This document shows positions 291 through 15,123 of a DNA stretch of 24,000 nucleotides, one piece after another. The notes below the pieces were generated by a model. That model did no database searches, was not told the origin of the DNA, and saw only the letters and a list, made by a program, of their open reading frames with translations. Position numbers and translations under genes: made by a program. Each line of letters starts with the position of its first letter. Within the stretch, counting starts at the first letter, position 1. The stretch lies in NCBI GenBank assembly GCA_017303905.1, contig JAFLBH010000001.1, positions 511,809 to 535,808 on the forward strand, given 5' to 3'. The DNA is from Bacteroidota bacterium (lineage in GTDB: Bacteria; Bacteroidota; Bacteroidia; B-17B0; Aurantibacillaceae).

Positions 291-2417
291 TCAAACTACT
301 TTTACAGAAATGATGCTCACGTCATCAACCTGCTCATTTTTACCCTTCCATTCCTGTAAGAAATTATAAAGCAGTTCTTTTTGTTGTTGCAACATTAAAT
401 TACTGTTGTTAACGATGAATGATTTTAAGTTTTTCGACATTAATTTTTTACTGCCTTCGCCACCAAATTGATCGGCAAATCCATCTGTGCTTAACACTAT
501 TTGATCGCCGGATTCTAATTGGATTTCATGTAAAGTAAATGGTATTAATTCACCGTGATAATTTCCAACCGGCATCTTGTCACCGGCGTATTCTATTAAT
601 GAACCATTTCTAATTATCCAAAGTTTATTATTAGCACCTGCAAATTCGAGCGTGTTGTTTAATTTGTTCCAGGTGCAAATAGCCATATCCATTCCGTCAC
701 GCCTATCTGTCACGCCTTTTTGTTCGAGGGAAGAAATAATTTTTGTGCGCAGTTTATTTAATATTTCTGCGGGATTGAAAAATTTATTTTCTACAACCAA
801 TTCATTTAAAAAACTATTTCCGAGCATGCTCATAAATCCACCCGGTACGCCATGCCCCGTACAATCGGCTAAAGCAAAAACTGCGCGACTATTAACAGTA
901 TTGTAAGCCCAGTAAAAATCACCACTTACAATGTCTTTAGGTTGAAATAAAATAAAATATTCTTGCGATATTTTTTTCCAAACATCATCACCTGTTAATA
1001 CGGCCGCCTGAATTTTTTGCGCGTAATGAATACTGTCAAGAATCTCTTTTTGTTTTTCTTCAACGAGTAGTTTTTGATGTTCAATTTCTTCTTTTTGTAA
1101 CTCTACTTGTTCCTTCTGGCTATTAATAATGATGTTTGCTTTTTGGGTTTTTTTGAAATTGCGAAAAGCTACAAAAGCAAAAATTACTACCGCAAATAAT
1201 CCCACTGTGCCAATGATTAAAACTTTTGTTTTGGCTTCATTTTCTTTTTCTTGCGCGGAAATTTCTAACGATTGATTTTGTATTTGCAGATCTTTTTTCT
1301 CTGTTTCGTATTTGGTGTTTAGGTTTTTGATAAGCTCAATGTTTTCAAGCGACAATAGAGAATCCTTCATGTTAGAAAAGTCATCCATGAACAAAAATCC
1401 TTTTCCTTTATCACCATAGGCTAAATGGTACTCACCAATTGTTTGTAAAAAAGGAACCTTATATTCGGGAAGGACATGAACCTCGCCAATAGCTTGTGCA
1501 GAATCTAAATATTTTGTTACTAAATGAGGCTTCGGAACAAACCTTAAATATACGTTCGCAGCATTTAAATATCCGCCGTATAAGGTGGCGGGATTATTCA
1601 AGGCTTTAGATAACTCAATCGTTTTTTTACAATAATATATCGCAGAGTCGGGTTGATTTAAATCCATGAATGTTAATCCCAGGTTTTGATAAACACCGGC
1701 TACACCATTTAAATTATTACTTGTTTGAAACTCTTTAAGGGCTAATCGATAATACTCCGCGCACTTAAGAGCATTGTTTTTGTAGTTTTGAATTAGCCCG
1801 AGATTTTGATAAACATAAGCGAGACTTCCGGGTATATATTCTTTAATTAGCAAATTATACGACTCCATTAAATACTTTTCTGCACTTATATAATCTTTTT
1901 GGTTAATATAAATTACAGCAATATTGTTTTTTAAGTCAGCAACATTCAGGGGTTTTTTTGACGCTTCAAAAAGCGTAATAGCGCTAATGTTTTCCTTAAT
2001 TGCGCTTTCATAATCTCCTTCGTTTTCATATACGAGGCCTAAGTTTTGATGCGAATAAGCTGCCAGAAGACTATAATTAATTTTTTTAGAAAACTCAATC
2101 GCTTTAAAATAGAAATATTTAGAGGAATCTTGATTACCAACGGTATAATAATAAATTCCTAATTTGAAATAGCCAACGCCCTCGTGTTTAATCGAGCCGG
2201 ATTTTTTACCTAGCTCAATTATTTTATAACCATATTCTTTGTTCTTTTCAGGAACACTCCCTGCCCAAAGAGCAGCTACCATGTTGTAATAGTTAGCTTT
2301 AGTTGTATCGTTTGCACTTTTACTTAGAGTAAGTAAACTATCAATAACTCGCATATTTTGTGCAAAGCATGCAAGAGAAACAAAAATGCCAAAAAGTAAG
2401 AATTTAAATTTACGCAT
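291..2417 (-). CDS. Membrane-anchored TPR-repeat sensor with a C-terminal PP2C-type (SpoIIE/RsbU-like) serine phosphatase domain
   Basis: 708 aa ORF with an ATG start. It has an N-terminal signal/TM segment and multiple TPR-like repeats (YQNLGL.. recurring). A coiled coil is followed by a TM helix (VLIIGTVGLFAVVIFAFVAF). The SpoIIE-type domain carries SGDFYW, DCTGHGVPGGFMSM, DGMDM, STDGFADQFGG and DDVSII. Confidence 0.85.
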   Translation of the reverse strand: MRKFKFLLFGIFVSLACFAQNMRVIDSLLTLSKSANDTTKANYYNMVAALWAGSVPEKNKEYGYKIIELGKKSGSIKHEGVGYFKLGIYYYTVGNQDSSKYFYFKAIEFSKKINYSLLAAYSHQNLGLVYENEGDYESAIKENISAITLFEASKKPLNVADLKNNIAVIYINQKDYISAEKYLMESYNLLIKEYIPGSLAYVYQNLGLIQNYKNNALKCAEYYRLALKEFQTSNNLNGVAGVYQNLGLTFMDLNQPDSAIYYCKKTIELSKALNNPATLYGGYLNAANVYLRFVPKPHLVTKYLDSAQAIGEVHVLPEYKVPFLQTIGEYHLAYGDKGKGFLFMDDFSNMKDSLLSLENIELIKNLNTKYETEKKDLQIQNQSLEISAQEKENEAKTKVLIIGTVGLFAVVIFAFVAFRNFKKTQKANIIINSQKEQVELQKEEIEHQKLLVEEKQKEILDSIHYAQKIQAAVLTGDDVWKKISQEYFILFQPKDIVSGDFYWAYNTVNSRAVFALADCTGHGVPGGFMSMLGNSFLNELVVENKFFNPAEILNKLRTKIISSLEQKGVTDRRDGMDMAICTWNKLNNTLEFAGANNKLWIIRNGSLIEYAGDKMPVGNYHGELIPFTLHEIQLESGDQIVLSTDGFADQFGGEGSKKLMSKNLKSFIVNNSNLMLQQQKELLYNFLQEWKGKNEQVDDVSIISVKVV

Positions 2418-3796
2418 TACCCAAACAATTGGTTAAACACCTCTTCTATTTTATTGACGGTTATAATTTCAATAGAATAGCTTTTAGGGTCTAATCCTTT
2501 TTTGTTAAAGGTAGAAATAAAAATCTTTTCAAATCCAAGTTTTTGCGCTTCACTTATTCTCTGTTCAATTCGGTTTACCGGTCTGATTTCTCCGGTTAAT
2601 CCAACCTCGGCGGCAAAACACACATTTTGAGGTATAGGTAAATCTTCGTTGCTTGATAAAATGCCACACACCAAAGCCAAATCAATTCCCGGGTCTTCCA
2701 CTTTGATACCGCCGGCAATATTTATAAAAACATCTTTTACGGCCAATCTGAATCCGCATCGCTTTTCCAAAACAGCTAATAACATGGATAATCTTCTTAA
2801 ATCAAATCCGGTAGAAGAACGTTGAGGTACGCTATAGGCGGCGCTGCTTACTAAGGCCTGTGTTTCAATTAACATCGGTCGATTTCCTTCCATGGTGGCC
2901 GCAATGGCTACACCACTGGTGGCATATTCACGTTGCGTGATTAAAATTTCGCTGGGATTCGTTACTTCTCGCAATCCGTCGCCGCTCATTTCGTAAATCC
3001 CCATTTCATTAGTGCTTCCAAAACGGTTTTTAGTGGCGCGCAATAATCTGTAAATATGATTCGTGTCGCCCTCAAATTGTAAAACCGTATCCACCATGTG
3101 CTCCAAAACTTTTGGTCCGGCTAAACTTCCCTCTTTGGTAATATGACCAATCATAAAAACCGGCGTATTGGTTTCTTTAGCGAAACGTAAAAATTCGGCA
3201 GCGCATTCACGAACCTGACTAACGCTTCCCGGACTGCTCTCGATATAGGACGTATGAATCGTTTGTATAGAATCGATAACTACCAGCTGAGGTTGTAACA
3301 CTTCTATTTGCTGAAAAATATTTTGTGTATTTGTTTCTTGCAAAATGAAACACGAATTCGTGGTAACACCAATCCTTTCGGCACGCATTTTTATTTGCTG
3401 TTCGCTTTCTTCTCCGCTAACGTACAACACTTTTAAATTTTTCAATCGTAAAGCCAATTGCAACATTAAAGTTGATTTACCAATGCCCGGCTCACCGCCA
3501 AATAAAACGATACTTCCGGGCACAATCCCGCCTCCCAACACGCGGGCTAATTCTTTTCCGGGAACGGGAATGCGCGGATAGTCCTGCAAGCCGATTTCTT
3601 GTAAAAGCTCGGGTTTGTTACTTTGTTTAGGGTCTTTGTTCCCCGAAAACAATTGCAGGCGATCGTTTTTAGTTTCCTTTCTTACAACCTCTTCCACCAA
3701 TGTATTCCACTCATTACAACTCGTACATTTTCCAACCCATTTATTGTGTTGTGTTCCACAGCTCTGACAGAAATATGTTGTTTTAGTTTTGGCCAT
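2417..3796 (-). CDS. radA: DNA repair protein RadA/Sms
   Basis: 459 aa. It has an N-terminal C4 zinc finger (CQSCGTQHNKWVGKCTSCNEW), a Walker A motif (GGEPGIGKST), the RadA-specific KNRFG motif and a Lon-protease-like C-terminal domain. The stop codon overlaps the downstream phosphatase ATG by 1 nt (TAATG). Confidence 0.95.
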   Translation of the reverse strand: MAKTKTTYFCQSCGTQHNKWVGKCTSCNEWNTLVEEVVRKETKNDRLQLFSGNKDPKQSNKPELLQEIGLQDYPRIPVPGKELARVLGGGIVPGSIVLFGGEPGIGKSTLMLQLALRLKNLKVLYVSGEESEQQIKMRAERIGVTTNSCFILQETNTQNIFQQIEVLQPQLVVIDSIQTIHTSYIESSPGSVSQVRECAAEFLRFAKETNTPVFMIGHITKEGSLAGPKVLEHMVDTVLQFEGDTNHIYRLLRATKNRFGSTNEMGIYEMSGDGLREVTNPSEILITQREYATSGVAIAATMEGNRPMLIETQALVSSAAYSVPQRSSTGFDLRRLSMLLAVLEKRCGFRLAVKDVFINIAGGIKVEDPGIDLALVCGILSSNEDLPIPQNVCFAAEVGLTGEIRPVNRIEQRISEAQKLGFEKIFISTFNKKGLDPKSYSIEIITVNKIEEVFNQLFG

Positions 3797-3803
3797 TATC
3801 TTG

Positions 3804-3883
3804 TTAAATGTTTTTTATTATATGTTTAGTGTTATTCATTCAAGTTAACATTTAACATAAAAAGCATATTGAAAAATGTTAAA
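3804..3883. repeat. Direct repeat DR1 (80 bp; perfect 74 bp core 3810-3883), immediately upstream of the radA start
   Basis: It matches 4312-4391 at 79/80 positions, with the single mismatch at 3809 vs 4317. It contains a 9 bp inverted repeat, TTAACATTT (3845-3853) / AAATGTTAA (3874-3882). Confidence 0.95.
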
Positions 3884-3907
3884 GTTTCCCGTTTACTAAC
3901 GGCATTA

Positions 3908-4276
3908 TTACTTGTTTCTTCTGGCTGTTTCAATACTTTTTACGAATATTGAAATGAGCTCTTTACATTCTTTATTTGCCCTTTCAACTTTATCAAGCTC
4001 TTTTATCAAAGGTTTTCTTTTGACAATTTCCAAGGCAATGCTTGTTTCTTTCAATTCTTTTAGACAAATTTTCATTTTATGAATGAAATCGTTTCTGGAT
4101 TCTGCTACTTGAGCCTCACCGTAATTAAAAGCGGGAGAGGTGCCCGAACGAAGCAGCTGTCCCGCTATGTGATTTCCGGCCTTAGTATTCGGCAACATTT
4201 CTACAATTTCCATATTTAATAAAGAAAAACTGATTAAGCGTTCTTCCAAATCAAACTTTTTTCCAACCTCTGCCAT
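3908..4276 (-). CDS. Four-helix-bundle protein (23S rRNA intervening-sequence protein family, TIGR02436-like; distant relative of DGR Avd)
   Basis: 122 aa with an ATG start. Typical family features are present: LEERLISFS...., AGNHIAGQLLRSGTSPAFNYGEAQVAESRNDFIHKMKICLKELKET..W/AL. The size and all-helical pattern fit the family. Confidence 0.8.
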   Translation of the reverse strand: MAEVGKKFDLEERLISFSLLNMEIVEMLPNTKAGNHIAGQLLRSGTSPAFNYGEAQVAESRNDFIHKMKICLKELKETSIALEIVKRKPLIKELDKVERANKECKELISIFVKSIETARRNK

Positions 4277-4311
4277 AGCTCCTTTTATTTAGGATAAAAC
4301 AAGGGAATCCA

Positions 4312-4391
4312 TTAAACGTTTTTTATTATATGTTTAGTGTTATTCATTCAAGTTAACATTTAACATAAAAAGCATATTGAAAAATGTTAAA
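4312..4391. repeat. Direct repeat DR2 (second copy of the 80 bp radA-upstream sequence), upstream of the four-helix-bundle gene
   Basis: The perfect 74 bp core at 4318-4391 equals 3810-3883. The same internal 9 bp inverted repeat is present. Confidence 0.95.
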
Positions 4392-4550
4392 TCTTTGGTT
4401 TATCAATACAAACACAAAGTTAGGCTCTACAGTAGCAAGTGCTTGCCATAAATTGTAGCAATTCAAAAAATCACCTTTTTTGGCACGATATCTGCTGTGT
4501 TTGCGGGGCTTTAACCCTTATAATATTAGAAATTCTGTATCTTTATTAAA

Positions 4551-5387
4551 ATGTTAAATTCACATATGCGACGGATTAAATGGACATCGGCAATAATTTT
4601 AAGCTTGGTACTTGCCATAACATTTTACAGTTGTAATAAACAAGATACCATTACGCCTCTTAGCGGGACTCCTGTTACAGGAAACGGTTCTGTTGATATT
4701 AGCTGGACTTTTGATAAGGCTCACAGCAATGTAAACTGGGAATCGAAATACCTCGATTGGTCGAGCGGAATGTTAACCGGACGCTTCAACAATTTTAATT
4801 TTTCTCCGAAGTTTGTCTTCAACGAAACTGATTTGAGCCTTTGCAAAATAAATGCCTGGGTACAATTGTCGTCTATAGATTCAGGAGAGCCCGGACGCGA
4901 CGGCGTTGGAAAATGCATTCGCAGTTACATGGGCGTTACTTATTTAGATAGCTTAAAAACAATTACAGATCCCGTTAGTGATACAGCTTGGTTTAAAAGC
5001 ACCAGTGTTGTAAAATCAGGTACGGGTTATGTTGTTTTTGGCAACATGCGTTTTAACCGTTACCGCGCACCAAGCGGAAATCCGGATGGCACGCACATTT
5101 TTAAACCGGCCGTTTTGTATTTAGTATATAATGGCACAGAAGATTTTGATACTAACGGTGATGCCATTACCGACAGATACCGCGCTTCTTTTTCAGCGAA
5201 GTTAAAATTCAAGCGTTCCGATTTTATGGACACCAATTCCACCGTGCAGTGGGTGCCTGTTCCTGCCTTGGCCGACCAAACAGGAAACATGAGCGCAGCG
5301 AATAATAAAACCTACGGTGTTTGGACAACCAACATCGCCGATGAAATGAGTTTTACGTTTAACGCACAGTTTTATAAAAATCACTAA
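4551..5387 (+). CDS. YceI-like (polyisoprenoid-binding family) lipoprotein
   Basis: 278 aa with a lipoprotein signal (..LVLAITFYSC); ATG 4566 (MRRIKW..) is an alternative start. YceI-like motifs are present: W-FDKAHSNVNW..., L-GRFN-F-F, and I-A-V-LSSIDSGEPGRD. Confidence 0.55.
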   Translation: MLNSHMRRIKWTSAIILSLVLAITFYSCNKQDTITPLSGTPVTGNGSVDISWTFDKAHSNVNWESKYLDWSSGMLTGRFNNFNFSPKFVFNETDLSLCKINAWVQLSSIDSGEPGRDGVGKCIRSYMGVTYLDSLKTITDPVSDTAWFKSTSVVKSGTGYVVFGNMRFNRYRAPSGNPDGTHIFKPAVLYLVYNGTEDFDTNGDAITDRYRASFSAKLKFKRSDFMDTNSTVQWVPVPALADQTGNMSAANNKTYGVWTTNIADEMSFTFNAQFYKNH

Positions 5388-5785: not shown

Positions 5786-7450
5786 ATGAAAACACGTTTA
5801 CAAAAAACTTTAACCGCTTTATTGTTGTTGTTTGTTATAAAAGCAACACATGCGCAAACAAATACCTGGCAATGGGCTAAAAGTGCAGGTGCTACCGGTA
5901 ACGAAGCTACCACCGGAACTGTTGTTGATGCGAGCGGCAATGTATATGCGGTGGGATGGTACACCAGTGCCACAATTACCTTTGGAACCATAACACTTAC
6001 CAATCCGGGTAATTTTACAGCGGATATGTTTATTGCTAAATACGATGCTTCAGGAAACGTGTTATGGGCAAAAACGTTTGGTGGAGTAGACGGAGAAATT
6101 GGAAACGGAATTGCGATTGATGCAAGCGGAAATATTTATGTTACCGGATGGTTCACTAGTTCTGCGATGGCCATGGACACGTATACCATTACAAATGCCG
6201 GCACCGCAAGCAGCGATATTTTTGTTGCTAAACTTGACGCGAGCGGAAGTACGGTATGGGCAAGAAGTGGTGGCGGAACCGGCGGCGATAGAGGACTGGG
6301 CGTAGCGGTTGATGCAAGCAACAATGTGTTTGTGAGTGGAGGTTTTAATAGTAACAGCATCAGCTTTGGCAGCGGAGGACTCACCAACGCCGGAACAAAT
6401 ACCAGCGATGTGTTTATCGTAAAATATAATGCAAGCGGAAATGTGCAATGGGCACAAAGTGCCGGTGGTTCAGCGAACGATTTATCCAATGGTGTTGCCA
6501 CAGATAGCTTAGGCAATGCTTATCTCACAGGTTATTTCTCGAGTTCAAATATTAATTTTGGAACCGGCATTATTAATAATAACACCGTTAATACACAAGA
6601 TATTTTTGTGACTAAATATAACGGTTCGGGGACCGCGGTTTGGGCACAGCGCACGGGTGGAAGTATGGATGATTACGCAAACGCCATTGCGATCAGAGGA
6701 AATCGTTTATACATTACCGGTGGATTTAACAGCGCATCCATTGCGGTTGGAACAACAACCTTAAACAACAATAGCGCGGGAACTTCTGATTTTATTTTGG
6801 CGAAATATGATTTAAACGGCAATGCACAGTGGGCCGTCGAAGCAGGCGATGTAGATTCTGAGGCGGGGAATGGCATAGCAACGGATGTGGCAGGAAATGT
6901 TTTTGTCAGCGGGTATTATATCAGTGCAACTATTATTTTTGGAACAAACACACTTACCAACGCTGCTGCGGGTTATCGCGATTTATTTGTGGCGGCGTAT
7001 ACAAGTAATGGTTTTGCCGCATGGGCGAATACAGCTACCGCCGCTACTTATGATGAAACCGCCAATGCCGTAGCGGTTACAGCAAGCGGAAGTGACGTGT
7101 ATGTAGGTGGTTCGTTTAATAGTGCTATTGCTTCTTTTGGAGCGCATAACGTTTATAAAGGTTGTGGCGATGATGTGTTTGTTGCTAAACTTACAGGCAC
7201 TACGGTTGGAATAAAAGAAAATAAACTGCACGATCAATTAGCATTGTATCCAAATCCAACAAGCGGAAAATTTACCGTAGAAGGTGAAGGACAAATTATT
7301 TTTTATAATGTATTAGGCGAAGAAGTGCTTAATGAAAAAGTAAATAAACATCAAACCTTCGATTTTTCATCGCAAGCTAAAGGCGTTTACGTTTATAAAA
7401 TAATCTCTACCGATAAAAAAGTGTATAGCGGAAGAGTAGTGGTGGAGTAA
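5786..7450 (+). CDS. Secreted SBBP-repeat beta-propeller protein (7 repeats) with a T9SS C-terminal sorting domain
   Basis: 554 aa with a signal peptide (..VIKATHAQ). Seven tandem repeats of roughly 60 aa follow the form D(A/S)SGN(V/I)Y(V)TG-F-S....FG...LTN.G...D-F(V/I)AKYDASGN..WA...GG. The C-terminus LALYPNPTSGKFTVE...GVYVYKI...SGRVVVE is a type-A T9SS CTD. Confidence 0.85.
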   Translation: MKTRLQKTLTALLLLFVIKATHAQTNTWQWAKSAGATGNEATTGTVVDASGNVYAVGWYTSATITFGTITLTNPGNFTADMFIAKYDASGNVLWAKTFGGVDGEIGNGIAIDASGNIYVTGWFTSSAMAMDTYTITNAGTASSDIFVAKLDASGSTVWARSGGGTGGDRGLGVAVDASNNVFVSGGFNSNSISFGSGGLTNAGTNTSDVFIVKYNASGNVQWAQSAGGSANDLSNGVATDSLGNAYLTGYFSSSNINFGTGIINNNTVNTQDIFVTKYNGSGTAVWAQRTGGSMDDYANAIAIRGNRLYITGGFNSASIAVGTTTLNNNSAGTSDFILAKYDLNGNAQWAVEAGDVDSEAGNGIATDVAGNVFVSGYYISATIIFGTNTLTNAAAGYRDLFVAAYTSNGFAAWANTATAATYDETANAVAVTASGSDVYVGGSFNSAIASFGAHNVYKGCGDDVFVAKLTGTTVGIKENKLHDQLALYPNPTSGKFTVEGEGQIIFYNVLGEEVLNEKVNKHQTFDFSSQAKGVYVYKIISTDKKVYSGRVVVE

Positions 7451-7458
7451 GTAAATTT

Positions 7459-7634
7459 AACCCCTCTGTCCTGCGGACATCTCCCCTTAGCAGGGGAGAA
7501 TTTTGTCATGGTCGATTCAAACTTTTTAGCAAAGATTTTCTTAATTGATAATATAAGCTCCATCAAAAACGGGCAGCTCCTCCCCCTGCTAAGGGGGAGT
7601 GCGCTTACGCGAAAGCGTAAGGGCGAGGGGGTTT
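7459..7634 (+). repeat. Nested-hairpin MITE-like element, copy 1 (hairpin order D-C-centre-B-A on the + strand)
   Basis: Its reverse complement aligns along its full length to 13793-13958. Termini are AACCCCTC ... GAGGGGGTTT. Hairpins are GTCC-TGC-GGAC, CTCCCCT-TAGC-AGGGGAG, CTCCCCC-TGCTAA-GGGGGAG and the variant CTTACGC-GAAA-GCGTAAG (7604-7621). A solo terminus remnant, GGGAGGGGGTTT, lies at 7650-7661. Confidence 0.85.
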
Positions 7635-7764
7635 ATCACTTACACAAAAGGGAGGGGGTTTGCAACTCAATACCCCAAGGGCTTTTACCTTACACTTTCA
7701 TATGTCCCTAAAAATTTGTTATTTCAAACTGTAACCAAAAAACTAATTTGCGTTATTGCCCCGG

Positions 7765-8955
7765 ATGAGTTTACATTTTACACACTTAAAATTAATTCTG
7801 TTTTTTCTTTTGTGCTTTCAATTAAGCCGGGCACAAAACCTGGTGGCCGATTCCAGCTTTGAAGCCAACAGTAAAGTTCCCGTATTACTTTCTTCTATAG
7901 GATTAAATGCCTCTTGGTCTTCGCCTAGTTGGGGCACTACGGATTTATTATGTGAGTGTGGAAAAAAATTAAAAGACAAATCGGAAGCACAAGTACCGCA
8001 TAATCCATTCGGCACACAAAAAGCAAACACCGGAAAATGTTACGCGGGATTTTATTTGTTCTCACATGCTGATTACAGAGAATATTTAATTACACAATTG
8101 AATCAGCCTTTGATAGGCGGCAACAAATATGAGTTAACGATGTATATCAGTTTAGCGGATTATTCGCGTGCGGCGATTTACCGCATGGGCGTTGTTTTTT
8201 TAAATGCAAAACCAAACTACACCAGCAGCGATGTCATCAGAAATATAAACCCGGTGAATGTGCCTTTAAAAAATCAAGTGGGTACCGACACCGTGAACTG
8301 GCATCAGATTGTTGTGGAGTATGAAGCCCATGGCGGAGAACAATTTTTACTGATAGGAAGTTTTGATATTTACGATTATGATGAAACCAATGCCCGTCCG
8401 CCAAAGGGCGTGCGCACAAAAATAAATCAACGCACCGACCGTGATGCGTATTATTACATTGATGATGTAAGCTTACATCAATTACCGCCGCCTGTTGTGG
8501 CCAAGTTTGATACTGTTGTAGCACCTATCATTGATACCATTCGTCCGGTTGCGATTGCAGAAGCCAATTTTGGAAACGATACGACAAAGCCCATCATTGA
8601 AGTGTTGGTAGACAAAACTTTTATTTTGAAAAATATTTTATTTGAAACCAACCGCGCGGTGTTATTGCCTTCCTCTTATCCGGAGCTGGATGCGTTTGCG
8701 AATTATTTAGTAAAAAATCCTCAGGTGTTTATTGAGATTGGCGGACACACCGACAATACCGGTAGTGAAGAACAAAATAAAATCCTCAGTGAAAAACGCG
8801 CCAATACAGTGGCCGATTATTTAATTACCAAAGGTGTGGAGTTAAACCGCGTTACTTTTAAAGGTTATGGCAGCACCAAGCCTATTGCCAATAATTCTAC
8901 CGACGAAGGCAAAAAGCAAAACCGAAGAGTGGAGTTTACTGTGGTGAAGAAGTAG
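7765..8955 (+). CDS. OmpA-family protein (N-terminal beta-sandwich-like domain plus C-terminal OmpA/MotB peptidoglycan-binding domain)
   Basis: The track ORF starts at TTG 7756. ATG 7765 gives a clean signal peptide (MSLHFTHLKLILFFLLCFQLSRAQN). The C-terminus FETNRAVLLP...IEIGGHTDNTGSEEQNKILSEKRANTVADYL...GYGSTKPIA...NRRVEF is a canonical OmpA_C domain. Confidence 0.85.
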   Translation: MSLHFTHLKLILFFLLCFQLSRAQNLVADSSFEANSKVPVLLSSIGLNASWSSPSWGTTDLLCECGKKLKDKSEAQVPHNPFGTQKANTGKCYAGFYLFSHADYREYLITQLNQPLIGGNKYELTMYISLADYSRAAIYRMGVVFLNAKPNYTSSDVIRNINPVNVPLKNQVGTDTVNWHQIVVEYEAHGGEQFLLIGSFDIYDYDETNARPPKGVRTKINQRTDRDAYYYIDDVSLHQLPPPVVAKFDTVVAPIIDTIRPVAIAEANFGNDTTKPIIEVLVDKTFILKNILFETNRAVLLPSSYPELDAFANYLVKNPQVFIEIGGHTDNTGSEEQNKILSEKRANTVADYLITKGVELNRVTFKGYGSTKPIANNSTDEGKKQNRRVEFTVVKK

Positions 8956-9020
8956 GCGGATTAAGCGTTCGTTTTAGCCTCAAGAAGAGTTTCCCAACAA
9001 TATTTTTTATAATTATTTGA

Positions 9021-9055
9021 ATGTAGACAACTGTCCGTTGTACTAATGTCTACAT
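9021..9055. promoter_or_regulatory. Putative C-box operator: 35 bp imperfect palindrome with perfect 9 bp outer arms
   Basis: The outer arms are ATGTAGACA (9021-9029) and TGTCTACAT (9047-9055). Partial inner symmetry is present (GACA-AC-TGTC at 9026-9035; 12 of 17 symmetric positions pair). It lies directly upstream of the HTH controller gene, and its size matches known C-protein operators. Confidence 0.5.
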
Positions 9056-9072
9056 TATTAGAAATTCACTTA

Positions 9073-9276
9073 ATGGATATTAGAAAAAAATTCGGAAAGC
9101 AAATTAAAAAATTGCGCATAGAGAAAGGAATGTCTCAGGAGGCATTAGCCTTTGAGGCGGAACTTGATAGAACATATATTCCGAGTATTGAAAAGGGTGA
9201 AAGGAATGTTTCATTAGTTGTAATTGAAAAGCTTGGAAAGGCCCTTAATGTTTCACCAAAAGTGTTTTTTGATTAA
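9073..9276 (+). CDS. XRE-family HTH transcriptional regulator, probable restriction-modification controller (C) protein
   Basis: MDIRKKFGKQIKKLRIEKGMSQEALAFEAELDRTYIPSIEKGERNVSLVVIEKLGKAL is a typical C-protein/Cro-like HTH. The track start at 9046 lies inside the operator arm, so ATG 9073 is preferred. Its stop is 2 nt before the HNH gene start. Confidence 0.8.
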   Translation: MDIRKKFGKQIKKLRIEKGMSQEALAFEAELDRTYIPSIEKGERNVSLVVIEKLGKALNVSPKVFFD

Positions 9277-9278
9277 CT

Positions 9279-9935
9279 ATGAGTAGCGCTAAAGAAAAAC
9301 TATTAAAGAAATTATTAGACAATGTAGGAAAGACTCTTACTAGAGAGCTTTTAAGTAAAACAGCAAATGTACACGACTGGCAAAGATCATTAAGAACTCT
9401 AAGGCAAGAAGGATGGCAGATTGTTTCGAGCAAGGAAGGCTATACACTCGTTTCTGAATTAAAGAATGAAACAAAGAAAAGCAGAATCACAATAAACAAT
9501 AAATTGCGCTATTCTATTTTACAAAGAGATAACTCAACTTGTCAAAGATGCGGAAAGACAGTACAAGACGGTATAAAATTGGAAGTTGATCATAAAATTC
9601 CCGTAGAATGGAACGGAACAAACGACGTTGAGAACTTGTGGACTCTTTGTAATGAGTGTAATGGAGGTAAAAAGCATTTTTTCTCTGATTTTGATGATAA
9701 AATAATGAGGGAGGTGATGAATGAAAAGAGCGGATATCAGCGTTTAGTAAAATTGTTTAAACTTAGTCCGAATACCGTTATAGAGCCAATAAAATTAGAG
9801 GCCATAAGCGGCATTAGGGACTGGACTAGAACTATTAGATTAATTAGATCAAAAGAAAAACTTAATCTTGTTTGGATAGATAAATCAACGGAGTTCCCGC
9901 AAGGAGGATACAAATTAATCAGACAAAAGAATTAA
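9279..9935 (+). CDS. HNH-family endonuclease, putative type II restriction endonuclease of the island
   Basis: 218 aa. The central HNH/zinc motif is CQRCGKTVQDGIKLEVDHKIPVEWNGTNDVENLWTLCNECNGGKKH. It appears coupled to the C gene and is convergent with the C5-MTase. Two similar wHTH-like modules flank the nuclease core. Confidence 0.65.
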   Translation: MSSAKEKLLKKLLDNVGKTLTRELLSKTANVHDWQRSLRTLRQEGWQIVSSKEGYTLVSELKNETKKSRITINNKLRYSILQRDNSTCQRCGKTVQDGIKLEVDHKIPVEWNGTNDVENLWTLCNECNGGKKHFFSDFDDKIMREVMNEKSGYQRLVKLFKLSPNTVIEPIKLEAISGIRDWTRTIRLIRSKEKLNLVWIDKSTEFPQGGYKLIRQKN

Positions 9936-11206
9936 ATATGCTTAAAAAGCGTTTCAATTATTAATTTCCCGGTTGCTTTAATTGCAGGCACCGCAACTGA
10001 ATTTCCAAATTGTTTATAGGCAGATGCATCAGCCACAGGAATTAAATAATTATCAGGAAAGCCTTGTAGCCTTGCCCATTCTCTAGGGGTCATTTTACGA
10101 ATTCCCTCCCTGTTTACTTCTCCCTTAATTTTTGTTTCAGGCGTAAAATCTTTTAAGCGAGTATCAATAATTAAATTTCTTTCTCGTCCCATTCCGCCGC
10201 AAACAACAGCGTTGGCGATCCCTTTGTCGGGAATAATTTCGTAACCAAAACCATTGCCTTTATTGGCATGCCTTTCTTTATGGGCTTTTAAGGTTTTTAA
10301 ATATTGAGTAGACAAATAATATCTTGCTGAAACAGGTTTTTTCTCCTTGATATCAGAAAACTTAACTTTCTTATCGGTTGGTTTAGGGTAATTAAAACTA
10401 GTAACTTTTAAATCTTTTCTAAAACCTACAATAAAAATTCTTTCTCTGTTTTGTGGTACACCAAAATCTTTTGCATTAATGATTTGAGGCTCGGGCACAA
10501 AATATCCTAAATCATTTCTTAATACATTTAATATGGTTTCTAATGTTTTTCCTTTGTCGTGATTTCTTAATCCTTTTACGTTTTCAAGAAAAATAGCTTT
10601 TGGTTTTTTTCTTCTAATAATTTCAGCTACATCAAAAAACAAAGTACCACGTGTATCCTCAAAACCGCCTCTTTTTCCTGCTATAGAAAATGCTTGGCAA
10701 GGAAAACCCGCACACAACACATCGAATCCATCAGGTATAAATTTCTTTGTTTCTTCCTTGGTAATATCACCAAACGGAACTTCACCAAAATTAGCTTTAT
10801 ATGTTTTTTGCGCCTCTTTATCCCACTCACTTGTAAAAACACATTTGCCTCCGAGACTTTGCATTGCTATACGAAAACCGCCAACCCCGGCAAACAAATC
10901 AATAAACTTAAACGTATAATTTTCAGGTGTTGGAAATGGAACGTTTTCTACTTCAAAAAGTAATTGTTGTAAGGCGCTTTCAGCAACCTCCGAATATTTT
11001 ATATTAGGAAACTTATAAAGCACCATTTCCTTTATAAATTTTTCCGCTTCTTTTTTGTAATGTTTTTTTACGCCGTTATGATAGTTGTGAAGATAGTGTG
11101 TAACAACTGCCTTTTTGTTGCTTTCAGGTTCTACCAGTTTAATTCTAAACTTTTTCCCTTCAAAATCATCGATTGTTATACTTTCTTTCAGCTTCATGAA
11201 TAGCAT
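9932..11206 (-). CDS. dcm: DNA (cytosine-5)-methyltransferase, Dcm/M.HhaI-like
   Basis: All the conserved motifs are present: I FIDLFAGVGGF, IV GFPCQAFSIAGKRGG, FEDTRGTLFF, VI ENVKGL, VIII QNRERIFIVGF, TRD segment KGNGFGY and X QFGNSVAVP. GGKCVFTSEWDKEAQKTYKANF closely matches E. coli Dcm. An alternative ATG is at 11197. An N-terminal extension of about 95 aa has unknown function. Confidence 0.95.
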   Translation of the reverse strand: MLFMKLKESITIDDFEGKKFRIKLVEPESNKKAVVTHYLHNYHNGVKKHYKKEAEKFIKEMVLYKFPNIKYSEVAESALQQLLFEVENVPFPTPENYTFKFIDLFAGVGGFRIAMQSLGGKCVFTSEWDKEAQKTYKANFGEVPFGDITKEETKKFIPDGFDVLCAGFPCQAFSIAGKRGGFEDTRGTLFFDVAEIIRRKKPKAIFLENVKGLRNHDKGKTLETILNVLRNDLGYFVPEPQIINAKDFGVPQNRERIFIVGFRKDLKVTSFNYPKPTDKKVKFSDIKEKKPVSARYYLSTQYLKTLKAHKERHANKGNGFGYEIIPDKGIANAVVCGGMGRERNLIIDTRLKDFTPETKIKGEVNREGIRKMTPREWARLQGFPDNYLIPVADASAYKQFGNSVAVPAIKATGKLIIETLFKHI

Positions 11207-11600
11207 TAACTATTTTGGTTATACAATATTGCAAATTTTCCTCTATTTCTTTTCCCCAAAAACGCAAAACTTGCCAATTTTCTTTTAACAAAACCTTATT
11301 AACTTCTTTGTCTCTGGCAATATTTCTTTCAATTTTCTTATGCCAAAAGTCTTGATTGCTTTTATGGTCATGTTTTCGCTTTTTCCAATCCTTGCCGTGC
11401 CAGAATTCACTGTCAACAAAAACGGCAATTTTGAGTTTTTTAAAAGTTAAATCCGGCTTACCGAAAACACTTTTATCATTTTTTCTATATCGATATCCTT
11501 TCACCCAAAGGGTTTTTGAAAGCAAGACTTCAATCTTAGAGCCTTTGCTTTTTACTGCCTGCATGTTTTTACGTCGTTGTTCTTTGGTGAGCTTATCCAC
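11166..11600 (-). CDS. vsr: Very-short-patch repair endonuclease Vsr
   Basis: LTKEQRRKNMQAVKSKGSKIEVLLSKTLWVKGYRYRKNDKSVFGKPDLTFKKLKIAVFVDSEFWHG matches the Vsr N-terminus and catalytic core. No ATG precedes the conserved N-terminus. The track uses TTG 11639; I prefer GTG 11600 (VDKLTKEQ). The 3' end overlaps the dcm start by 32-41 nt. Confidence 0.8.
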   Translation of the reverse strand: MDKLTKEQRRKNMQAVKSKGSKIEVLLSKTLWVKGYRYRKNDKSVFGKPDLTFKKLKIAVFVDSEFWHGKDWKKRKHDHKSNQDFWHKKIERNIARDKEVNKVLLKENWQVLRFWGKEIEENLQYCITKIVNAIHEAERKYNNR

Positions 11601-11712
11601 AAAGCGAAAATAGAACAAAGTGTAAAAACAGGGAAACAAAATTATATTAAAAGAATAACAATGCTTGCTATAAAATGTAGCATTTTTTTAAAGTAAGAAA
11701 AAAAGAAAGTAA

Positions 11713-12834
11713 CTACCTCTTATTAATCAACTCATTTGTCTTCAGCAGCAAATCCATAAATAAAATTTTAGGATTAGCGTTGCGCTCTATGTAATAACAG
11801 TTGCTATTAAATTCTTCTACCAGCATTTCGTAATTGCGCTGGGTAATAAAAGGCGCAAATTTTTCTAAGAATTGTTTTTCGTTGCCGCTCAAGCGCACTA
11901 AATCGCGTGAGCCAAAATTATACATCAAACAATCTCTGAATATCTCGAGTCCGTATTGTAAAAATTGTTTTTGTTTTTCGCGTCCTGTTGCAGCGTTCTG
12001 GTCAATCCACTGCAAGGCTTTGTCGCAATCAAACTTTAAAGCCAGGCGCATAAAGCTTTGGAAGTGTTGCAAAAAAGATAATTGCTCATCGCTTTGCGTT
12101 AATAGTTTGATGGCTTCATTAAAATTGCTGTCGCATAAAAATGCCGCTTGCTGCGCGTTCTCTTCGGTAACACCAAACTTTTTTACCAAGGCTTCTTTTA
12201 TCTCCGCTTCCTGTAAACGCAAAAACGGTATTTGTTGCACGCGCGAAATAATTGTAGCCAATAACTGATCAGGATTATTACACACCAAAATAAAAATGGT
12301 TTGTTCAGGCGGCTCTTCCAATACCTTTAATAATTTATTGGCGGCTTCGGTGTTCATTTTCTCCGGCTGCCAGATGATCATTATTTTGTATAGTCCCTCG
12401 TAACTGGTATAACTTAATTCGCGGATGATATTGCCGCTTTCCTCAACAGGAATAATCGGTTGTTTGTTTTCTGCATCCAGACCTTCAAACCAATCGTTTA
12501 AACTTAAGTAAGGATTTTCTAAAAACGCCTCACGGAATTCCTTAATTAAATCGGCGCTGCTTTTTACATCTTTCGATTTGGCGATAGGAAACACCAAGTG
12601 CAAATCAGGATGTACCAATTTATTTGTTTTCTGACAACTCGGACATTCACCGCAGGCATCGTTGTTTTGTTTGTTGCTGCAAAATAAATATTGCGCAAAA
12701 GCCATAGCGGTTCCTAAATTGCCGCTGCCTTCATAGCCTGTAAATAAAAGTGCGTGAGGTAAACGGTTTTCATTCACCATTTTTATCAAACGATCTTTTA
12801 CTTCTTTTTGTCCAACTATGTCGCGTAGCAGCAT
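11713..12834 (-). CDS. holB: DNA polymerase III delta-prime subunit (HolB)
   Basis: The sequence reads MLLRDIVGQKEVKDRL...HALLFTGYEGSGNLGTAMAFAQYLFC...CGECPSCQK...HPDLHLVFP...VLEEPP. The track ORF (to 12945, TTG start) reads through repeat copy 2. ATG 12834 is the first Met and aligns with the family N-terminus. Confidence 0.9.
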   Translation of the reverse strand: MLLRDIVGQKEVKDRLIKMVNENRLPHALLFTGYEGSGNLGTAMAFAQYLFCSNKQNNDACGECPSCQKTNKLVHPDLHLVFPIAKSKDVKSSADLIKEFREAFLENPYLSLNDWFEGLDAENKQPIIPVEESGNIIRELSYTSYEGLYKIMIIWQPEKMNTEAANKLLKVLEEPPEQTIFILVCNNPDQLLATIISRVQQIPFLRLQEAEIKEALVKKFGVTEENAQQAAFLCDSNFNEAIKLLTQSDEQLSFLQHFQSFMRLALKFDCDKALQWIDQNAATGREKQKQFLQYGLEIFRDCLMYNFGSRDLVRLSGNEKQFLEKFAPFITQRNYEMLVEEFNSNCYYIERNANPKILFMDLLLKTNELINKR

Positions 12835-12883
12835 AGAGCAAATATACACTTCCGAGAGGAGAATAGAAAGATTATTTGGGGAT

Positions 12884-13087
12884 AAACCCCCTCCCGCTTC
12901 GCGGACTCCCTCCCGATTATCCCGATAGCTATCGGGACGGGACAAGCTCTTAGCAGGGGGAGAGGCTGTTCGTTTTTGATTCAGCTTTAATTTTCAATAA
13001 GGGAAAATCGTAGCTAAAAATTTTGAATTTACCATGAAAGAATTCTCCCCTGCTAAGGGGAGATGTCGCGTAGCGACAGAGGGGTTT
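12884..13087 (-). repeat. Nested-hairpin MITE-like element, copy 2 (with a ~38 nt structured expansion in hairpin B)
   Basis: The termini and architecture match copy 4. The expansion at 12911-12948 contains TCCCG/CGGGA around a perfect 16 nt palindrome, CCCGATAGCTATCGGG (12921-12936). Hairpin D is GTCGC-GTA-GCGAC (13065-13077). Confidence 0.85.
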
Positions 13088-13137
13088 TGTTTTAAAAAGT
13101 TGTTTGAAGTTTGAGACTCTTCGTTTTATATTGTGGT

Positions 13138-13331
13138 AAAACCCCCTCCCGCTTCGCGGACTCCCCCTTAGCAGGGGGAGGGGCTTTCCGTTTTTGATGG
13201 AGCTTGAATTGTAAAAAAAGGAAAATCGTTGCTAAAAAATTTTTAATCTACCACGAAAGAATTCTCCCCTGCGAAGGGGAGATGTCCGAACTTGCCAGCC
13301 GTGGCGCAGCAGGCTGGGGACAGAGGGGTTT
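13138..13331 (-). repeat. Nested-hairpin MITE-like element, copy 3 (with a ~30 nt structured expansion in hairpin D)
   Basis: The outer D stem GTCC (13284-13287) / GGAC (13318-13321) is retained. The inserted inner stem is CCAGCC (13295-13300) / GGCTGG (13312-13317). The rest is collinear with copy 4. Confidence 0.85.
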
Positions 13332-13342
13332 ATGCCACTCTT

Positions 13343-13708
13343 TCATTTATTTTGAAAATAGGATTTAATTAAATCTAACACACCCTCAGTGTTTTTAAAA
13401 ACATGCTCGTTTTCAATTCTAACGGTTCTTATACCATACTTTAATAATAAATCATCTCGCTGCTTGTCATGTTCAAATCCAACAACAGTGAAGTGATGTT
13501 CTCCGTCTAACTCAACAGCTAATTTTTCTTCTGCACAATAAAAATCAAGAATGAAATTTTTGAAACTGTGTTGTCGTCTAAATTTTCTTCCTTCCAGCTG
13601 AGAATTTTTTAAATATTTCCAGAGTATTTTCTCAGGAACAGTTGTGTTATCTCTTAAATCTTTTCTGTATTCTTTTAAATAAGACCTGTTATTATTTCTT
13701 ATCTGCAT
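13343..13708 (-). CDS. DUF559 endonuclease-domain protein (Vsr-like / PD-(D/E)XK fold)
   Basis: 121 aa with an ATG start. EKILWKYLKNSQLEGRKFRRQHSFKNFILDFYCAEEKLAVELDGEHH...RDDLLLKYGIRTVRIENEHV is the typical DUF559 pattern. Repeat copies 3 and 4 flank it. Confidence 0.85.
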   Translation of the reverse strand: MQIRNNNRSYLKEYRKDLRDNTTVPEKILWKYLKNSQLEGRKFRRQHSFKNFILDFYCAEEKLAVELDGEHHFTVVGFEHDKQRDDLLLKYGIRTVRIENEHVFKNTEGVLDLIKSYFQNK

Positions 13709-13792
13709 ACAGCAAAATTATAAGGAGTTGTTTTTGATCCTTGCTATAATTTGTAGTTTTTTTGGTTAAGACCTTTTATTATATTTAAGAAC

Positions 13793-13958
13793 AAACCCCC
13801 TCCCGCTTCGCGGACTCCCCCTTAGCAGGGGGAGGGGCTGTTCGTTTATAAATTGGCTTGAATTGTAAAAAAAAGGAAAATCGTTGCTAAAAATTTTGAA
13901 TCTATCACGAAAGAATTCTCCCCTGCCAAGGGGAGATGTCCGCAGGACAGAGGGGTTT
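13793..13958 (-). repeat. Nested-hairpin MITE-like element, copy 4 (minimal/consensus form)
   Basis: The termini are AAACCCCCTC ... GAGGGGTTT. Hairpin A is 13803-13813 (CCGC-TTC-GCGG). Hairpin B is 13815-13834 (CTCCCCC-TTAGCA-GGGGGAG). Hairpin C is 13918-13935 (CTCCCCT-GCCA-AGGGGAG). Hairpin D is 13938-13948 (GTCC-GCA-GGAC). Confidence 0.85.
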
Positions 13959-14007
13959 GTGACAGAGACGCTAATTATTTTTCTAAATCAAAAAGTTTCA
14001 AGGAAGT

Positions 14008-15123
14008 TTACCCCACCAAACTATACATTTTTCCGGGTAGGGAGCGAATGACGTTGGAGAATTCGAGTTGCAATAATAAGGCCGCTACTTTGCTAATGGT
14101 AAATCCGGAGGCGTAACTGATTTCATCCATGTGCAATTGCTTTTTTTCCTTAAAGCAATTCACAATTTTTTGTTCTTCTTCGCTGAGGTTAATTAAGAGC
14201 GGAATTTGTGAACTCTCTTTCTTTTTACTTTTTGTTTCGCTTTCCCAACCCATCACATAAAACAAATCCGCTGCACTTTCCATCAATGCTGCTTTATTCG
14301 ATTTTATAAAACCGTTACATCCTTCACTCATTACATCCGTACTTCTTCCCGGAAAGGCAAACACATCTTTATTATAACTGTTAGCAATGGTGGCCGTGAT
14401 TAAACTTCCGCCATCGCGTTTACTTTCCATCACAATCAAGGCATCGCACATACCCGCCACAATACGGTTTCGCTTCGGAAAATTAACGGCATCCGGATTA
14501 GTACCGCTTCTGAAATCGGTAAGTATCCCGCCCTTCTTTTGCATTTTCATGGCAATACTTGTGTGTGTTTGAGGATACATGCGATCGAGTCCGTGCGCTA
14601 CAACACCCACCGTATCCAAATCATTTTCCAAGGCTTTTTTGTGTGCTAACACATCAATGCCATAGGCTAATCCGCTCACCACTAAAACACCACTGCCGCG
14701 TAATTCATTCACTAATTTTTCGGTTTGCTCTCTGCCGTAATCGGTGGGCTGACGTGTGCCTACAATGGCCACAATCTTTTCAGTATTTAAATCGGCATTG
14801 CCTTTGTAATAGAGTAAAACCGGACTATCACTGCAATATTTTAAACGCTGCGGATATTTTTCATTGGTAAAAAAGAGCGTTTCAATGTTGTTTTCTTCAA
14901 TGAAACGAACTTCTTTTTCGGCTTCTTTCAAAACGTGTTGCTGCGCAATAATCGCTTTGGCTAGACCTTCGCCCACACCCGGAATTTTCAATAATTGCGC
15001 TTTATTTGCTTTAAAAATCTCTTCGGCATTTCCGCAATAAGCTAAAAGATTTTTAGCCACCACATCTCCAACGCCTTCCAATAGGGTTAAACCTACCTGA
15101 TACAACAATTCGCCTCCCACCAT
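14008..15123 (-). CDS. dprA: DNA-processing protein DprA (Smf)
   Basis: 371 aa. VAIVGTRQPTDYGREQTEKLVNEL...VVSGLAYGIDVLAHKKALE...TVGVVAHGLDRMYPQTH is the Rossmann-like DprA core. An N-terminal HhH-like region and a C-terminal wHTH-like tail are present. Confidence 0.92.
   Translation of the reverse strand: MVGGELLYQVGLTLLEGVGDVVAKNLLAYCGNAEEIFKANKAQLLKIPGVGEGLAKAIIAQQHVLKEAEKEVRFIEENNIETLFFTNEKYPQRLKYCSDSPVLLYYKGNADLNTEKIVAIVGTRQPTDYGREQTEKLVNELRGSGVLVVSGLAYGIDVLAHKKALENDLDTVGVVAHGLDRMYPQTHTSIAMKMQKKGGILTDFRSGTNPDAVNFPKRNRIVAGMCDALIVMESKRDGGSLITATIANSYNKDVFAFPGRSTDVMSEGCNGFIKSNKAALMESAADLFYVMGWESETKSKKKESSQIPLLINLSEEEQKIVNCFKEKKQLHMDEISYASGFTISKVAALLLQLEFSNVIRSLPGKMYSLVG

Follow-up and report, generated by a model that had tools for sequence, protein, structure and literature searches.

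Four copies of a structured repeat and a DUF559 gene

A 24,000-nt stretch of a Bacteroidota genome (assembly GCA_017303905.1, contig JAFLBH010000001.1, positions 511,809 to 535,808), the whole of which is called the window below, carries four copies of a structured repeat, copy 1 on the minus strand (7459-7634) and copies 2, 3 and 4 on the plus strand (12884-13087, 13138-13331 and 13793-13958), and, between copies 3 and 4, a gene for a 121-aa protein of the DUF559 (YcjD) family with a Vsr-like PD-(D/E)XK fold (13343-13708, minus strand). A sequence-only reading of this DNA had placed the four copies at these positions, where all of them were found, and had considered them either a structured RNA with expansion segments or DNA hairpins selected by a structure-specific enzyme; it had overlooked the probable role of the termini as third strands of a triplex, the kinship with BoxC/PIT/TM_ECO repeats and the DUF559 gene. 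Chance is excluded as the origin of the four-copy pattern: the core of hairpins B and C, CCCCTTAGCAGGGG at up to two mismatches, occurs 8 times (0.03 expected) and the terminus motif 9 times (1.4 expected).

Alignment of the copies bore out imperfect terminal inverted repeats of about 42 nt and an AT-rich centre, the latter being conserved. Copy 4 (13793-13958, plus strand) is the minimal element and may be read as an inverted dimer, two triplex modules around the AT-rich centre at 13835-13916; as single-stranded DNA it is predicted to fold into four local hairpins. Its right half starts with hairpin C (13917-13936, plus strand; pyrimidine arm TCTCCCCT, loop GCCA, purine arm AGGGGAGA), which is predicted as an 8-bp hairpin in the single-stranded fold and would be the duplex part of the right module. 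Hairpin D (13937-13949, plus strand; TGTCC-GCA-GGACA with a GNA loop) joins the purine arm to the right terminus (13949-13958, plus strand), position 13949 being common to both; this terminus consists of AGAGGGGT (13949-13956), which mirrors AGGGGAGA and would serve as the third strand of a purine-motif triplex, followed by TT. The left module (13793-13834) lies on the minus strand and is built of hairpin B (CTCCCCCT-GCTA-AGGGGGAG at 13815-13834), hairpin A (CCGC-GAA-GCGG at 13803-13813) and the putative left third strand, GAGGGGGT plus TT (13793-13802). The two termini had been described as complementary to each other; they are, and this match is weaker than the one that each terminus has with its own neighbouring hairpin, as the left terminus has 5 C and adjoins the 5-G hairpin B, and the right terminus has 4 G and adjoins the 4-G hairpin C.

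The remaining copies differ in individual hairpins, as had been noticed before. Hairpin D is GTCC-GCA-GGAC in copies 1 and 4, takes the form TGTCGC-GTA-GCGACA in copy 2 (13064-13078) and is enlarged in copy 3 (13283-13322) by a nested expansion that includes a CCAGCC/GGCTGG stem (13295-13317). A distance of 11 nt separates the end of the right third strand of copy 3 (13331) from the DUF559 stop codon. In copy 2, hairpin B (12906-12962) is split by an insert of 37 nt (12910-12946) with a 16-nt palindrome inside (12921-12936), which alters the predicted single-stranded fold of the left module. Copy 1 shows, on the minus strand, hairpin D at 7467-7479, C at 7480-7499, B at 7580-7599 and a long hairpin A, CTTACGC-GAAA-GCGTAAG (7604-7621, within 7601-7624), with GAGGGGGTTT as third strand (7625-7634).

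The termini mirror the adjoining purine arms

On the G-rich strand of a module, hairpin B or C, in which a loop joins the pyrimidine arm to the purine arm, is followed by a variable mini-hairpin (A or D) and then by a terminus that is the mirror image of the adjoining purine arm. AGGGGAGA is followed by AGAGGGGT in the right module, and AGGGGGAG by GAGGGGGT in the left module on the minus strand; both pairs are present in every window copy, and the two combinations were counted in 34 and 22 cases, respectively. The rule was tested in the window and 112 further loci, with each hairpin taken on both strands, only asymmetric arms admitted, G mirrored as G and A as A or T, and the search limited to the 60 nt that lie 3' of the purine arm. 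Of the 433 distinct hairpin orientations, 178 had the arm mirrored in full and 37 had it repeated directly; the mirror match of 41% compares with 7.4 ± 1.1% when the partners came from modules of other arms. The rule is obeyed by 40 distinct arm sequences across 123 related loci; the mirror of A was A in 181 instances and T in 236. Mirror symmetry of this kind (G as G, A as A or T) is the rule of the purine-motif, or reverse Hoogsteen, triplex. Watson-Crick pairing of the terminus with the pyrimidine arm was considered and rejected, as it needs a mismatch and a wobble pair and becomes worse in the common A-to-T variants.

Purine arm and terminus are separated by a linker of 3 nt (54 cases) or by a mini-hairpin of 12-14 nt. 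When single modules were folded as single-stranded DNA, the 8-bp hairpin and the mini-hairpin were predicted and the terminus was left unpaired. The mini-hairpins have GAA, GCA, GTA, GGA or GAAA loops, with a C-G closing pair in most short forms, and these GNA/GAAA loops always lie on the strand of the G-rich terminus. GNA and GAAA loops closed by C-G are classic, very stable DNA mini-hairpins.

Hairpin covariation and instability between strains

When genomes, one for each species, were searched for the 22 specified bases of hairpin C and its 3' box, 30 loci were found, and these gave 38 distinct right-hand modules. The earlier claim that the differences between copies preserve pairing holds in this larger set: hairpin D has 23 different inner sequences, all four Watson-Crick pair types occur at its first variable pair, and 43 outside-in pairs were counted compared to 12.0 ± 3.6 in shuffles. 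Hairpin A varies independently of hairpin D, and in no case are the two complementary, indicating that the conserved structures are the local hairpins and not one long inverted-repeat hairpin. With the mirror rule, the four copies are very probably non-coding DNA repeats, namely inverted dimers of intrastrand-triplex modules, and the window variant may be expected to fold as a triplex.

A contig from a Flavobacteriaceae metagenome-assembled genome (MAG), L004, is syntenic with the window, its flanking genes being 97-99% identical. In spite of this, entire hairpins (A, B and D) have been exchanged between orthologous copies for others from a shared pool, as the D form of window copy 2 is that of L004 copy 3 and the long hairpin A of window copy 1 is that of L004 copy 4. 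In the L004 counterpart of copy 3, GTCGCGTAGCGAC stands in place of the hairpin D expansion, and the 37-nt insert of copy 2 is missing; further differences are a scrambled stretch of 22 nt next to the left terminus of copy 4 and, at the other end of the copy 1 ortholog, a 29-nt deletion that removed the terminus together with the upstream gene's stop codon. In the fetched data, the inserts of copies 2 and 3 are unique and the expansions are not random insertions of a separate mini-palindrome family, an outcome that would have spoken against the sequence-only reading. Comparison of two other related loci, L016 and L009, revealed that a second element had been added exactly at a terminus together with a conserved 50-nt spacer. 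Strains from human gut metagenomes (L057-L095) carry from 1 to about 8 tandem modules downstream of the DUF559 gene (alignment columns 2260-3420), and a nested hairpin, CCCCGTAATGCTACGGGG, is present or absent in loop 1 of individual units.

The 50-nt spacer is also found between copies 2 and 3 of the window (13088-13137, plus strand) and is conserved in L016 although the element doublet there is not orthologous. Its interpretation as the relic of a deleted DUF559 gene was dropped, since 288 of 1000 shuffles align to the upstream region of the gene as well as it does. Behind copy 1, positions 7635-7661 contain TTTATCACTTACACAA, a reverse-complement match to the right part of the L016 spacer, and a solo extra terminus GAGGGGGTTT is located at 7652-7661 (plus strand), 17 nt past the copy. 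Two further boxes were noticed, GGCTGTYCGTT just inside hairpin B (12963-12975) and ACCACGAnnGnATT just inside hairpin C (13026-13043), each with equivalents in copies 1, 3 and 4. Both are asymmetric, conserved across the Bacteroidota subfamilies and absent from the single modules of other phyla, and they could be candidate protein-binding sites.

Relationship to BoxC/PIT/TM_ECO and other repeats

BoxC, PIT elements and TM_ECO are names for the same repeats, known since the early 1990s (Bergler 1992; Hoyne and Maher 2000; PMC4666352). Their consensus, CCCTCNCCC-N3-6-GGGNGAGGG-N3-GGGNGAGGG, describes a class II purine-motif intrastrand triplex (Holder 2015, PMC4666352), whose formation in vitro was demonstrated by circular dichroism and nuclear magnetic resonance; E. 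coli K-12 has 23 BoxC copies, five of which occur as inverted pairs that combine two unlike types (PMC4666352). The folds stall polymerases and the loci are more rearranged between strains than controls, while the authors never found transposases, integrases or other mobility functions nearby (PMC4666352).

The window repeats share with BoxC/PIT/TM_ECO the block order and the G.G-C, A.A-T and T.A-T triplets, the intergenic, dispersed and multi-copy occurrence, the frequent inverted pairs of unlike types, the local rearrangement, the lack of a known transposase and, with BoxC beside ycjD, the neighbouring gene. As in that class, the first two blocks are Watson-Crick complementary in all four copies (the 8-bp hairpins B and C) and the third block mirrors the purine arm; the short unstructured loops of the class are not found here. 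Instead of the 3 nt of TM_ECO, loop 2 is a hairpin of 13 nt (copy 4) to 40 nt (copy 3), and the arms are TCTCCCCT/AGGGGAGA and CTCCCCCT rather than CCCTCNCCC/GGGNGAGGG, so that the published consensus does not match. The modules of the window type also form inverted dimers of about 120-190 nt with a conserved centre, occur in a wider range of phyla and are associated with DUF559, a link that is absent from the searched literature on BoxC and triplex repeats. The published search, under its ITxF definition, allowed loops of 1-6 nt only and would therefore have missed the window type. Judged from its sequence, this type is a variant of the BoxC/PIT/TM triplex repeats that is new in its hairpin loop 2 and in its inverted dimers of about 170 nt.

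Repetitive extragenic palindromic (REP) sequences, their doublets (REPINs) and the REP-associated tyrosine transposases (RAYTs) offer the closest parallel in organization, with short structured repeats, folded single strands, inverted doublets, a single small gene flanked by repeats and, in either system, no target-site duplication (PMC3733652). By inspection, and with the definition given in PMC3733652, the window repeats lack the GTAG or CGTC tag at the hairpin foot. A REP is a simple hairpin and not a triplex with a mini-hairpin, and the flanked gene here encodes a Vsr-like PD-(D/E)XK protein of the DUF559 family instead of a Y1 HUH RAYT, with no clear covariation of gene and repeat. Vsr and Vsr-like homing endonucleases resemble DUF559 in fold and in the location of cassettes inside operons. 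Small nuclease genes of the Vsr-like fold can be selfish, site-directed elements (e.g. I-Bth0305I). In contrast to these, DUF559 has no intron or intein context and its putative target would be a repeated folded structure and not a unique long sequence. By inspection only, integron attC sites (RYYYAAC ... GTTRRRY cores around an imperfect hairpin, each cassette having one site and all sites the same orientation) did not fit because the ends AAACCCCCTC and GAGGGGTTT have the wrong polarity and modules occur in all orientations, and IS200/IS605 ends, uptake sequences and G-quadruplexes were discarded on grounds of polarity, orientation or spacing.

Modules in other genomes

Full elements of 120-190 nt are numerous in two Bacteroidota MAGs. 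Outside the Bacteroidota, the common form is a single half-module, i.e. CTCCCCTGCNAAGGGGAGATGTC, a variable hairpin and then GACAGAGGGGT; such half-modules, single or in tandem, were found in MAGs labelled Patescibacteria, Gracilibacteria, Clostridia, Fretibacterium, Coraliomargarita and Bdellovibrionales and also in Tangfeifania, so that the host phyla include Bacteroidota, Patescibacteria, Clostridia, Synergistota, Verrucomicrobiota and Bdellovibrionota. With respect to genes, modules may point either way; some are located within operons and one is in frame within a coding sequence. The neighbours of modules besides DUF559 are ordinary housekeeping genes. Among viral contigs, the DNA pattern gave 0 matches and the DUF559 protein query 2 loci.

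The in-frame module (L028, 3622-3667) is part of a 565-aa N6/N4 DNA methyltransferase ORF (3206-4903, minus strand) whose frame is intact. In a Paceibacterota MAG (L013, 1-700) a module lies at the edge of an insertion of about 360 nt in the 23S rRNA gene, where the Rfam LSU match, model positions 2480-2818, is stretched over 700 nt; the insertion adjoins GGGTTCAAACCGT, in a region known for homing-endonuclease sites. A lone module stands immediately upstream of an ATP synthase epsilon gene (L026, 1164-1211). One complete element is enclosed by an outer AACCCCCTCGCCCGTG ... CACGTGACAGAGGGGTTA, i.e. by duplicated or nested termini (L005, 5967-6094), and at another locus (L011, 5733-5800) GACAGAGGGGTTTGTAACAGAGGGGTTT is present and a flank of about 30 nt is repeated on both sides.

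Association of DUF559 genes with modules

The ORF between copies 3 and 4 matches Pfam PF04480 (E 1.5e-28; 99.3 bits compared to a gathering cutoff of 20.6) and NCBIfam PRK09767, has a homologue of solved structure in PDB 3HRL (E 1.6e-24) and gives a weak match to Vsr; D55, E66, D68 and H72 are invariant in 69-70 of 70 DUF559 homologues. The protein is 99% identical to that of L004, and a look-up of its exact sequence returned no record. To our knowledge no role is known for DUF559 (YcjD in E. coli), a large family with a solved structure.

DUF559 is the only protein family that recurs beside modules across phyla, namely in the window, in L004, in a Bdellovibrionales locus (L012) and in a Bacteroidetes locus (L028); the proteins of these loci share only 42-45% identity, in contrast to the nearly identical DNA modules. 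At L028, three tandem 56-nt modules adjoin the DUF559 gene and a segment of about 120 nt is repeated on both sides. For the reverse approach, starting from the protein, 80 metagenomic loci with DUF559 homologues of 42-57% identity were collected. They show the same module architecture with different sequences, e.g. CCCCTCC-loop-GGAGGGG-hairpin-GGGGTGGT. Pyrimidine/purine hairpins amount to 4.69 per kb within 170 nt of the DUF559 gene and to 0.15 per kb beyond 270 nt, and they occur in 77 of 130 DUF559 flanks compared to 1 of 48 for other genes of these loci (Fisher p = 1e-13). Mirror-validated modules were detected within 200 nt of DUF559 in 51 of 72 distinct loci, which is an underestimate because large-loop forms are missed. 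In a plasmid collection, nine of ten loci from named organisms have modules beside the DUF559 gene (Synechocystis, Sphingomonas, Azospirillum, Photobacterium, Deinococcus, Neisseria, Pseudanabaena, Methylobacterium and Sinorhizobium). The only regularity in the geometry is that a downstream module in minus orientation begins at a median of 2 nt past the DUF559 stop codon. DUF559 cassettes were observed inside operons, between sufB and sufC in Sphingomonas (L116, 477-887) and between paaD and paaZ in Deinococcus (L119, 471-824), and directly upstream of an ABC-transporter ATPase gene in the Bdellovibrionales MAG (L012, 280-633). The association, which is not described in the searched literature on DUF559 or on triplex repeats, is in our judgement very probably real.

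In E. coli, CCCTCGCCCCTCTGGGGAGAGGGTTAGGGTGAGGGG lies about 165 nt downstream of ycjD and upstream of fabI and fits the published TM_ECO/BoxC consensus; it has a median of 17 occurrences per genome. In the ycjD region of K-12 (L113, 5190-5761), a C-rich CACCCTCTCCC overlaps the ycjD stop codon and a fragment of the ycjD 3' end is duplicated. The gene is present in 3378 of 5426 complete E. coli genomes, so that its natural polymorphism leaves about 38% without it. No clean empty site for ycjD was found in E. coli genomes; those that lack the gene contain a different island at that place, with TetR and RND efflux genes and a breakpoint about 45 nt from BoxC (L113, L124 and L125).

Interpretation and alternatives

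A possible course of events starts with the G-rich strand of a module becoming transiently single-stranded during replication, repair or transcription. The pyrimidine arm would then pair with the purine arm to an 8-bp hairpin (B or C), the GNA-looped mini-hairpin (A or D) would make the turn, and the mirror G-rich terminus would return along the major groove, antiparallel to the purine arm, with formation of G.G-C, A.A-T and T.A-T triplets. Selection would keep the fold and not the hairpin sequences, which would allow hairpins A and D to diverge, to be exchanged among copies and to acquire nested insertions. Polymerase stalling or instability caused by the fold, combined with gene conversion from copy to copy, may account for the hairpin swaps, deletions, expansions and changes in array size. 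The DUF559 nuclease may recognize the folded module and nick at or beside it, and nicking could lead to copying, gene conversion and local amplification of the modules and of the DUF559 gene itself; its relation to the modules would resemble that of RAYT to REPIN, except that the enzyme is a hydrolytic PD-(D/E)XK protein.

We estimate the probability of this explanation as a whole, triplex-module dimers with DUF559 as partner nuclease, at roughly 0.55. The anatomy, the mirror covariation, the hairpin covariation and the association of gene and repeat were observed directly. That DUF559 acts on the modules we would put at even odds, and a REPIN/RAYT-like replicator made of DUF559 and triplex modules in at least 8 phyla including E. 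coli (BoxC) is a tentative and rather doubtful extension. Selection of DNA hairpins by a structure-specific enzyme, one of the two proposals of the sequence-only reading, agrees with conserved structures of free sequence, with the MITE-like (miniature inverted-repeat transposable element) ends and with the recurrent nuclease neighbour; the action of the enzyme is the part that we infer.

Several points weigh against a partner nuclease and against the triplex. In any given genome, the majority of modules lie far from DUF559 genes, and 21 of the 72 DUF559 loci have no validated module within 200 nt, some of these being large-loop misses. A fixed geometry with ends always inward or outward, as in an insertion sequence (IS), was rejected because all four orientation combinations were seen (8, 7, 7 and 6). 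DUF559 proteins share 46% identity within and 43% between module classes, and in 28 of 55 cases the class is that of the nearest neighbour, a weak tracking that does not fit a sequence-specific pair of enzyme and site. A hydrolytic PD-(D/E)XK nuclease is unable to carry out strand transfer or transposition alone. A comparison in E. coli that favours a partner gene is only suggestive, since its groups follow phylogeny: among 60 genomes of a spread sample, matching places, nearly all of them BoxC, number 11-27 (median 19) in each of the 37 that have ycjD and 1-16 (median 5) in the 23 that lack it, and O157-like genomes still have 12-16 copies in the absence of ycjD. Concerning the triplex, loop 2 of the window type is longer than in any characterised PIT/TM_ECO motif, and a published in vivo dimethyl sulfate footprint in E. 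coli showed no triplex protection (PMC4666352).

Part of these findings can be read in favour of co-location without any enzymatic relation, in which fragile module sites gather DUF559 cassettes, or both settle in permissive gaps, and modules spread by replication slippage and recombination with no dedicated protein. The variable orientation around the gene, the failure of DUF559 similarity to track module class and the copies kept by O157-like genomes would be explained in this way, as would the rearrangement of TM_ECO loci with no mobility gene (Holder et al., PMC4666352) and the E. coli segment of ycjD and BoxC, which is one of two alternative islands with its breakpoint close to BoxC. We consider this unlikely, though a real possibility, as DUF559 alone recurs beside modules across phyla where the other neighbours are housekeeping genes, and as the association is also seen from the protein side, across unrelated environments and in nearly all of the named organisms. 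The median distance of 2 nt from the stop codon to minus-orientation downstream modules is unexpected for passive packing, and tandem arrays grow right beside the DUF559 gene.

An exapted bidirectional transcription terminator or insulator, with hairpins B and C and T-rich runs pointing inward and the rest of the anatomy incidental, is improbable. A terminator scan of 7300-14200 gave 21 sites, mostly at hairpins B and C, compared to 6.3 ± 2.3 expected, and the copies are located just past the 3' ends of a gene with a type IX secretion system (T9SS) tail (stop codon 7450), of the DUF559 gene (13343) and of dprA (14008). Termination leaves the mirror third strand, the position of the mini-hairpin and the DUF559 association unexplained, modules are also found within operons and within a coding sequence, and earlier work saw no promoter or terminator activity of PIT elements (PMC4666352). 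A terminator role is possible as a side effect.

A conventional MITE, i.e. an IS deletion derivative moved in trans by a DDE transposase via its inverted repeats of about 42 bp, appears slightly less probable still. The imperfect terminal inverted repeats, small size, AT-rich core and intergenic multi-copy spread are shared with bacterial MITEs (Correia/NEMIS, RUP, ERIC), as are possible terminator effects, and the exact insertion of the second element and its spacer at a terminus in L016 would fit. Unlike in MITEs, half-elements are common, mainly as single half-modules in other phyla, and the ends are constrained by a mirror symmetry that a duplex-binding transposase does not impose. No target-site duplication was found (whatever the offset, a 2-nt repeat was shared by no more than 3 of 12 elements), nor a parent IS, and neither a transposase gene nor a transposase domain was detected in the window or beside the copies.

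A structured non-coding or cis-regulatory RNA with hairpins A-D as helices and expansion segments, the other proposal of the sequence-only reading, is very improbable: compensatory variation in hairpin D, GNRA-type loops, fold z-scores of -3.3 (plus strand) and -4.8 (minus strand) and the necessary transcription of modules inside operons are in its favour, but the minimum-energy RNA fold, a long inverted-repeat hairpin, pairs A with D, which are independent and never complementary, modules occur on both strands and in both orientations, the window and 24 related loci had no Rfam match at gathering score and only chance-level miRNA-like ones at E-values up to 10, the mini-hairpin loops are of the DNA type, the recurrent neighbour is a DNA nuclease, and the mirroring of A as T fits the DNA purine-motif triplex, stated to be unable to form in RNA (PMC4666352).

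Other features of the window

The window further encodes a T9SS sorting domain and a TonB receptor with a CarboxypepD_reg-like domain. A small ORF on the minus strand (3908-4276), a member of the 23S rRNA intervening-sequence protein family (PF05635), stands between the two units of an 80-nt direct repeat (3804-3883 and 4312-4391, 99% identity) and has the look of a further small cassette with flanking repeats of its own. A compact island at 9279-11639 combines an HNH endonuclease, a C5 cytosine methylase and a genuine Vsr mismatch endonuclease; together with the ORF at 13343-13708, the window thus encodes a true Vsr and the Vsr-like DUF559.

Significance

BoxC/PIT/TM_ECO elements are abundant in many bacteria and have remained orphans for about 30 years, with no function, origin or partner protein found for them. 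The class of triplex motifs is now widened to structured loops, MITE-like dimers and many more phyla, and the association described here ties BoxC/PIT repeats to DUF559 in the model organism E. coli, where ycjD is naturally polymorphic. The replicator reading, if true, would supply BoxC/PIT with the protein and DUF559 with the substrate that each has lacked so far. Should DUF559 prove to act on the modules, the pair would represent the first system of protein recognition of a DNA triplex that acts as, or has been domesticated from, a selfish genetic element.

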